From: a virus
Length of the DNA stretch: 6,860 bases
Reading direction: 5' to 3' (one strand)
Virus record (IMG/VR): IMGVR_UViG_3300022693_002873
Location: 1 to 6,860 of that record
Below are positions 1,289-1,676 of the stretch, one piece after another. The position numbers and the translations under genes were made by a program. The notes beneath the pieces were generated by a model. That model ran no database searches, was not told where the DNA came from, and saw only the letters and a program-made list of their open reading frames with translations. Positions within the stretch are counted from its first letter, which is position 1. Each line of letters starts with the position of its first letter.

Positions 1289-1332
1289 GAGAGTCCACAT
1301 ACTTTAATAGTGGACTCTTGGCCGAAATTCGG
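1289..1332 (+). other. Plus-strand (viral-strand) replication origin core: f1/M13-type gpII nick hairpin plus adjacent palindrome
   Basis: GAGTCCAC ATA CTTTAATAGTGGACTCTTG (1291-1320) compares with f1 GAGTCCAC GTT CTTTAATAGTGGACTCTTG at 28/30 identity. The stem is 1290-1298/1310-1318. The predicted nick is CTTT^AATAG, between 1305 and 1306. A palindrome CCGAAATTCGG follows at 1322-1332. Confidence 0.85.
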
Positions 1333-1334
1333 AT

Positions 1335-1676
1335 TTATTTTTCAAATTGCCTCGATAGTAATTTTGTTTGATATTTGAATGCTACGCTTTCAATCATCAT
1401 TATTATCGATTCTTTTTCCTTTTCTCCCAGCTGTTTAATAAGACCTATTTTACTTATTAATCTTTCATCTATATCAGTTTCCTGATCACTTATTATTTCT
1501 TGTGGGCTCATACCGTAAAATTTGGCCAGCTTTTCTATTGTGCTTAGTTGTGGCGACTGAGTTCCTTTTTCATATTTTATATATGTTGTTTTAGTAGTCC
1601 CTATCGCTTTTGCAACATCTTCTTGGGTAAGATTTCTAGCCAATCTCAATGACTTTATTTTTTCTTCAAACATCAC
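1335..1676 (-). CDS. XRE/Cro-CI-family helix-turn-helix transcriptional repressor (RstR-like position and orientation)
   Basis: The N-terminus is a typical HTH_3 domain: IKSLRLARNLTQEDVAKAIGTTKTTYIKYEKGTQSPQLSTIEKLAKFYGMSPQEI. It is the only minus-strand gene and is divergent from gene II. The track start at 1676 is GTG; the ATG at 1673 is the next codon and equally possible. The stop TAA lies at 1337-1335. Confidence 0.88.
   Translation of the reverse strand: MMFEEKIKSLRLARNLTQEDVAKAIGTTKTTYIKYEKGTQSPQLSTIEKLAKFYGMSPQEIISDQETDIDERLISKIGLIKQLGEKEKESIIMMIESVAFKYQTKLLSRQFEK

Follow-up and report, generated by a model that had tools for sequence, protein, structure and literature searches.

A probable Ff-type plus-strand origin of replication in a temperate, dif-integrating inovirus of Pseudoalteromonas

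Genes and features at the locus

The DNA analyzed here is a stretch of 6,860 nucleotides (nt), positions 1 to 6,860 of IMG/VR virus record IMGVR_UViG_3300022693_002873 (hereafter, the window), and the element under study is a putative plus-strand origin of rolling-circle replication at positions 1290 to 1332. The first 144 bases of the window recur at its end, so it represents a complete circular inovirus genome of 6,716 bp. The element is located between gene I, a Zot-type gene that crosses the junction of the circle and ends at 759 (as judged from the list of open reading frames [ORFs] and Pfam), and gene II (gII), which starts at 1796, and it is carried on the gene-coding strand. It consists of a hairpin on the plus strand (1290 to 1318), in which a 9-bp stem (1290 to 1298 paired with 1310 to 1318) encloses an 11-nt loop (1299 to 1309; ATACTTTAATA), the counterpart of hairpin [D] of f1, followed on the same strand by a small dyad, CCGAA-A-TTCGG (CCGAAATTCGG), at 1322 to 1332. 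Two bases past the dyad lies the stop codon (1335 to 1337) of a minus-strand gene (1335 to 1676) for a repressor of the Cro/CI type (Pfam HTH_3; E = 9e-18).

Gene II (1796 to 3106, plus strand) encodes a rolling-circle initiator (gpII) of 436 amino acids (aa) with the Pfam domains Phage_CRI (E = 5e-52) and G2P_X_C, the latter at residues 334 to 417. Its nearest named relatives by tblastn were the Ff phages, at 38% identity across 95% of the length, and IKe/PEar, at 37.6% across 97%; in all, it is about 38 to 39% identical to the gpII proteins of Ff and IKe across 95 to 97% of its length. An alignment of 16 gpII sequences contained 40 invariant columns, among them a tyrosine in the motif R..KAY.K..E that aligns with Tyr197 of fd and corresponds to Tyr202 of the window protein (codon 2399 to 2401), the predicted catalytic residue; Asano et al. 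are said to have identified Tyr197 in 1999 as the residue of gpII that becomes linked to the nick. Judging from its sequence, the product of 1796 to 3106 is an orthologue of Ff gpII. An in-frame internal ATG preceded by GAGG defines a probable gene X equivalent of 135 aa (2699 to 3106, plus strand), whose initial methionine aligns with the start region of fd pX.

Similarity to the f1/M13/fd origin and position of the nick

A preliminary description of the window, made from the letters alone, had noted that 1291 to 1320 (GAGTCCACATACTTTAATAGTGGACTCTTG) agreed at 28 of 30 positions with the f1 origin core. This was correct. BLAST comparison with deposited records aligned the segment with positions 5766 to 5795 of f1/M13 and 5767 to 5796 of fd at 93.3% identity (E = 1e-3 against 2.3 Gb), and weaker matches were obtained with IKe and three Vibrio cyclitrophicus inoviruses. 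In 200 dinucleotide-preserving shuffles of the window, the f1 motif was never approached to within three mismatches, and the window itself contained neither a second copy of the origin nor another candidate. When folded as single-stranded DNA (ssDNA), the region yielded exactly the 9-bp stem that had been proposed, together with a small second hairpin at 1322 to 1332 (-11.1 kcal/mol; z = -5.0 compared to shuffles).

The nick context CTTT^AATAG is exact at 1302 to 1310. In the fd record, base 5782 is labeled "origin of viral strand synthesis"; since this base is in register with window position 1306, the predicted gpII nick was placed on the plus strand between T1305 and A1306, in agreement with the earlier proposal, and A1306 would become the 5' end of the displaced strand. 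The hairpin had also been described as the one in which gpII nicks. The site does lie in its loop, but the statement oversimplifies the reaction: a published minimal gpII cleavage substrate begins at GTTCTTTAATAG and thus has no 5' arm (bioRxiv 10.1101/2023.12.22.573028). Nicking of the duplex therefore does not require the hairpin, and it is more likely that the conserved pairing of the stem serves termination on the displaced single strand rather than initiation. Deletion work on f1 reportedly indicated that termination requires more 5' sequence than initiation.

The dyad is the positional equivalent of the f1 TTCCAAACTGGAA element, the core of the gpII-binding beta and gamma repeats, and its center lies 12 nt past the hairpin core in both fd and the window. 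The f1 element is bound by gpII, and a binding role for the window dyad is carried over from it. Taking sequence, structure, gene order, the orthologous initiator and the family conservation described below together, we consider it very probable that 1290 to 1332 is the Ff-type plus-strand origin core of this phage, a temperate Pseudoalteromonas inovirus that integrates at dif, and that it is homologous to domain A of the Ff and IKe origins.

Occurrence of the site beside gpII genes

A scan of IMG/VR with the pattern GTCCAC-N4-TTTAATAGTGGAC matched 31 contigs, two of them cloning-vector fragments. A gpII homologue was detected on the same strand as the motif in 28 of the 29 nonvector contigs, the remaining one (L023) being short and ending about 1.2 kb beyond the motif. 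The same pattern, applied to bacteria at one genome per species, retrieved 75 loci (L037 to L111). In 51 of these, the flanks were identical to f1, the contigs were small, and the hosts were unlikely (Streptomyces, Bacillus, cyanobacteria, metagenome-assembled genomes, and others); these 51 loci are f1-ori vector or M13 contamination of public assemblies. The other 24 are prophages in Pseudoalteromonas, Zobellella, Oceanisphaera, Aeromonas, Bacterioplanoides, Motiliproteus, Kluyvera, and other genera.

With so many contaminants among the bacterial matches, the similarity of the window to f1 could itself be ascribed to vector or M13 sequence, to a chimeric assembly, or to an origin acquired very recently from an Ff phage. 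However, both flanks in the window differ from f1, as do two positions of the loop. The site is also present in four other independent records, namely, two Pseudoalteromonas shioyasakiensis contigs, an SRA assembly, and an IMG/VR contig. Contamination was excluded because of these differing flanks and this recurrence. In addition, related prophages of Pseudoalteromonas, Zobellella, Aeromonas, and other hosts have variants of their own, each beside its own gpII, and, as far as sequence can show, we give contamination, chimerism, or such a transfer practically no credence.

Because the motif scan had a fixed hairpin core, ascertainment was repeated through the protein, which gave 414 IMG/VR stretches with a gpII relative. 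Among the best 80 of these 414, which were retrieved, nearly all with enough upstream flank have an origin-like site on the gII strand, located 38 to 590 nt upstream of gII in most cases and 0.7 to 2.3 kb upstream in a few. The nearest relatives (L007, L014, L018, L019, and L034) encode gpII proteins 74 to 80% identical to that of the window and carry a small antisense gene at the corresponding place.

Conservation and covariation of the origin

Thirty nonredundant, diverse origins from the protein-ascertained relatives were used for the analysis of covariation. The conserved unit comprises about 45 nt. The T.TAA around the nick was invariant in 30/30 origins, and the six core stem pairs were paired in all 180 cells. 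Three of these six pairs have changed on both sides, giving stems such as GTACAC/GTGTAC, ATCCAC/GTGGAT, GTAGAC/GTCTAC, and the fully swapped GTGGAC/GTCCAC. All six pairs of the dyad covaried and were paired in 95% of cases, and the whole 15-pair structure was 94.7% paired, compared to 30 to 45% in slid-partner controls. The covariation score of the set was reached by no shuffle. The lower three stem pairs showed no covariation, their 3' side (TCT) being just conserved. A first covariation count (A2) had been uninformative for the hairpin core, since its search pattern contained fixed core bases, and was replaced by this set.

The preliminary description had suggested a conserved cleavage site beside a diverged initiator-binding repeat, and the family comparison bears this out: among relatives, the dyad sequence varies by paired substitutions while its register stays constant.

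Two Pseudoalteromonas prophages that are relatives of the window phage carry tandem duplications within the origin. That of L104 is 20 nt long, has a single possible phase, and starts exactly at AATAG, the predicted +1; that of L100 is independent, 22 nt long, and has a start compatible with the predicted +1. The far end of each unit lies in the loop formed by the second palindrome. It is suggestive that they may be scars of mis-terminated rolling-circle replication, in which synthesis would have overrun the true site by 20 to 22 nt before the strand was cleaved and sealed, and they are consistent with the predicted nick.

Several observations weigh against the assignment of the element as an Ff-type origin or against parts of its support. 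A third duplication (L161) begins at +2 and not at +1. The dyad does not follow gpII phylogeny, gpII proteins 80% identical having different dyads and others about 40% identical sharing one, and no convincing link of dyad sequence to gpII lineage or regulator type was found among the relatives compared; given this poor tracking, the dyad is not established as a determinant of specificity. On its 3' side, in the place of the f1 delta repeat and domain B, there is no recognizable counterpart, and the region overlaps the last repressor codons. Finally, resemblance to the 3' half of the motif played a part in the choice of the covariation sets.

Altogether, origin duplications were noted in L104, L100, L161, and L157 (20, 22, and 14 nt), with the left edge at the predicted nick or one or two bases from it. 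As a separate observation, contig L134 (IMGVR_UViG_2687453440_000001) contains at about 1029 to 1086 a second, partial origin made up of the 3' half and the dyad (TTTAATCGTGGACTTTTGTCTCAAAATGGGAC) without the 5' arm, in addition to a complete origin elsewhere.

Comparison with known origins

The 28/30 agreement with domain A of the Ff phages (f1, M13, and fd) extends over the nick hairpin and the TCTTG that follows it, including CTTT^AATAG, with the dyad at the same distance; in both cases the origin lies upstream of gII on the coding strand, and the initiators are orthologous, with an aligned tyrosine. The window differs from Ff in the sequence of the dyad (CCGAAATTCGG as opposed to TTCCAAACTGGAA), in having neither a recognizable delta repeat nor a domain B, and in the antisense repressor gene beginning 2 nt past the dyad, where fd has no ORF. 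It also differs in lifestyle, the window phage being temperate and integrating at dif, whereas Ff does not.

IKe and PEar (Lineavirus) share with the window the hairpin core, which the IKe record labels as viral-strand origin stem-loops, the register of the dyad, a gpII about 38% identical to that of the window, and an antisense ORF that ends just past the dyad. IKe differs in the loop bases (TATG, compared to ATAC in the window), in its dyad (TTGCATTTTGCAA), and in its antisense ORF, which encodes an unrelated protein of 65 aa. That the Ff and IKe origins are conserved is not new, as can be seen from the annotation of IKe, and the initiator of the window is their orthologue. The comparison confirms the established mechanism and does not alter it.

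An identical hairpin core and the same architecture were found in the prophages of Pseudoalteromonas, Zobellella, Oceanisphaera, Aeromonas, and Bacterioplanoides and in the marine V. cyclitrophicus inoviruses, but the dyad sequence and the type of regulator gene are particular to each. No experimental study of these origins was found in the literature searched. A search with the motif string matched only papers quoting vector or oligonucleotide sequences, a keyword search retrieved no comparative treatment of the nick site in marine or other non-Ff inoviruses, and the paper on Pseudoalteromonas phage f327 contained no origin analysis.

With CTXphi, a repressor-controlled vibrio inovirus that replicates from a rolling-circle origin by means of RstA, the window has in common integration at dif and a similar folded attP. 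The CTXphi ori(+) spans 167 bp, its nick falls between a G and a T of a second hairpin's loop, and it requires HU, whereas the Ff origin comprises about 36 bp and is nicked without an accessory protein (PMC4439123). In the loop of the window (ATACTTTAATA) there is no GT, the organization is the compact one of Ff, and the published description of CTXphi sets the two apart. The existence of such a complex ori(+), with HU needed for nicking, in a phage of similar lifestyle (PMC4439123), together with the loss of all conservation with f1 beyond +27, might indicate that the site in the window is a relic or serves termination only, initiation depending on another region or on extra host factors or sequences. 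However, the entire initiation-proximal segment, comprising the nick, the conserved AATAGTGGACTCT, and the dyad in register, has been kept under selection across the family, and the window offers no second copy or alternative candidate. We therefore regard a relic or a termination-only site as very improbable.

The antisense regulator and transcription across the origin

The preliminary description had presented the origin as butted against the repressor stop codon. The stop does lie 2 nt past the dyad, but this is a common layout of the family and not a peculiarity of the window. The slot between origin and gII is occupied in relatives by differing small reverse-strand genes, and in most lineages with such a gene its stop codon starts 20 to 24 nt past the hairpin core, the distance being 8 and 32 nt in two further lineages. 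Pfam assigned no significant family to the relatives' small antisense ORFs. IKe (L030; X02139.1, 6601 to 6798, minus strand) and the IKe-like contigs L011, L021, L022, L024, and L031 have a conserved antisense ORF of 62 to 79 aa; that of IKe itself (65 aa) lies between the plus-strand origin and gene II and is unannotated in the record. Its substitutions pile up at the third codon position (for instance, 7/2/21), which shows it to be a real gene, and its only family match was a weak one to RHH_3. An antisense regulator abutting the origin is thus a common architecture of the family, built with unrelated regulators and including IKe, while fd has no ORF in the slot.

The equivalent of domain B had been expected either to lie inside antisense coding sequence or to be absent. 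In accordance with this, window positions 1330 to 1480 (27 to 30% GC) are the 3' part of the repressor gene in antisense, and a scan for the IHF consensus found no site there or near the origin. In addition, one lineage starts gII about 25 nt past the hairpin, so an Ff-like domain B is not a feature of the family and appears to be peculiar to Ff.

An intrinsic-terminator-like stem followed by a T run was found by consensus scan on the minus strand at 1212 to 1225, beyond the origin for the repressor transcript. Its position suggests that this transcript may cross the origin and end at 1225 to 1212. The hairpin and the palindrome could be mainly a transcription signal, one that forms the 3' end of, or terminates, the repressor mRNA or rightward transcripts, or else a packaging signal or minus-strand origin. 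The element does come directly after the repressor stop and before the minus-strand terminator-like site, its small palindrome leads into a T-rich run of the plus strand, and the corresponding stem-loops of IKe are annotated both as potential terminators and as viral-strand origin. However, the terminator scan called neither stem-loop, the loop sequence is invariant beyond what pairing alone would demand, and the element is kept in lineages without an antisense gene, where gII begins about 25 nt farther on; packaging and minus-strand priming could rely on other, larger hairpins of the intergenic region. Such signals are thus very improbable as the main function of the element.

The origin would lie in the 3' untranslated region of the repressor mRNA, and this packing recurs with unrelated regulators. 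On this basis, it is conceivable, if unlikely, that the packing does more than save space and that leftward transcription of the repressor through the origin modulates nicking by gpII, through supercoiling or occlusion, and so couples replication to the lysogeny switch. As a corollary, domain B of Ff would be a remnant left where Ff lost the gene.

Between the divergent repressor gene and gene II, at 1711 to 1763, two 24-nt direct repeats (75% identical) overlie the best promoter-like site of the region, TTGAAA-17-TATATT (1736 to 1764). These repeats are likely operator sites.

Proposed mechanism and use of the origin

By homology with f1, a mechanism can be proposed for the Ff-type origin of the window. 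The gpII orthologue would bind to the dyad and to the conserved AATAGTGGACTCT segment of the double-stranded replicative form and would nick the plus strand between T1305 and A1306, probably via Tyr202, after which a host polymerase would extend the 3'-OH. After one round, the displaced strand could fold into the hairpin at 1290 to 1318, and gpII would cleave the regenerated site and seal the circle. The gene V protein would coat and sequester the displaced plus-strand circle.

The origin and its predicted nick are now fixed for an uncharacterized family of marine prophages, which is useful for annotation and may find use in phagemids or tools for ssDNA production in Pseudoalteromonas and related hosts. 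The comparison also provides a rule for finding origins in gpII-type inoviruses: an invariant nick context, a compensated stem, a fast-changing dyad at a fixed distance, and no conserved domain B.

Integration site and prophage copies

The attP region (849 to 1005, plus strand; 845 to 1008 in a wider delimitation) comprises a dif-like site at 849 to 879, with an XerC-like arm, an 11-nt spacer, and an XerD-like arm, and an inverted partner at 983 to 1005 with matching arms and unmatched centers. Plus-strand ssDNA folds here as a forked hairpin (-40 kcal/mol; z = -5.6). The prophage junctions correspond to window positions 845 to 860, and attR, ACTACCCATAA-TTTATA-TTATGTTAAAT, agrees with Escherichia coli dif at 23 of 28 positions. 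CTXphi has an attP that is a folded single strand, and the organization in the window looks like single-strand integration of the CTXphi type. In tandem prophages of CTXphi, rolling-circle replication runs from one ori(+) to the next. Single-stranded copies of the CTXphi genome are regenerated from such tandem prophages (PMC4439123).

A gpII identical in sequence to that of the window is also encoded by P. shioyasakiensis JCM 18891 and by an SRA assembly. The P. shioyasakiensis copy is a dif-integrated prophage, 97 to 99% identical to the window outside a swapped gene III segment. Two JCM 18891 contigs, NZ_LRUE01000005.1 (L071) and NZ_LRUE01000014.1 (L099/L035), each hold a complete phage copy; the start of one contig and the end of the other lie within the att core, where they overlap by 7 nt. 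Since the two copies are 100% identical, a tandem prophage and an assembly artifact are indistinguishable and equally possible. The SRA contig (L036) has one phage copy between the same host flanks.

Other features of the phage genome

Megablast of the whole genome against 50,697 phage records gave no match, no named phage among them being close at the DNA level, and an Rfam search of the window found no family. Downstream of gene II are a gene for a gene V-type ssDNA-binding protein (3312 to 3611, plus strand; Pfam Phage_DNA_bind, E = 1e-16), the inovirus major coat protein gene (3914 to 4048), and a long gene III-like ORF, which includes 4307 to 5329 and encodes a collagen-like G-x-y repeat. 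The segment at 4307 to 5329 has no alignable counterpart in the prophage copies L035 and L036, and 5329 to 6860 is only 83% identical; the swapped segment appears to be an exchanged host-range module.

Directly after the stop codon of gene I, at 756 to 811, there is a strong hairpin with 17-nt arms that are 94% complementary, nested in a perfect 11-nt inverted repeat. It is a candidate terminator or packaging signal, placed like hairpin [A] of Ff. The AT-rich intergenic stretch at 1004 to 1100 contains clustered direct and inverted repeats of the TTACGTAA and GGTACGTAAT types (I1, I4, I7, I10, and I11; D3 and D4), which could be a packaging signal, a minus-strand origin, or an array of protein-binding sites.
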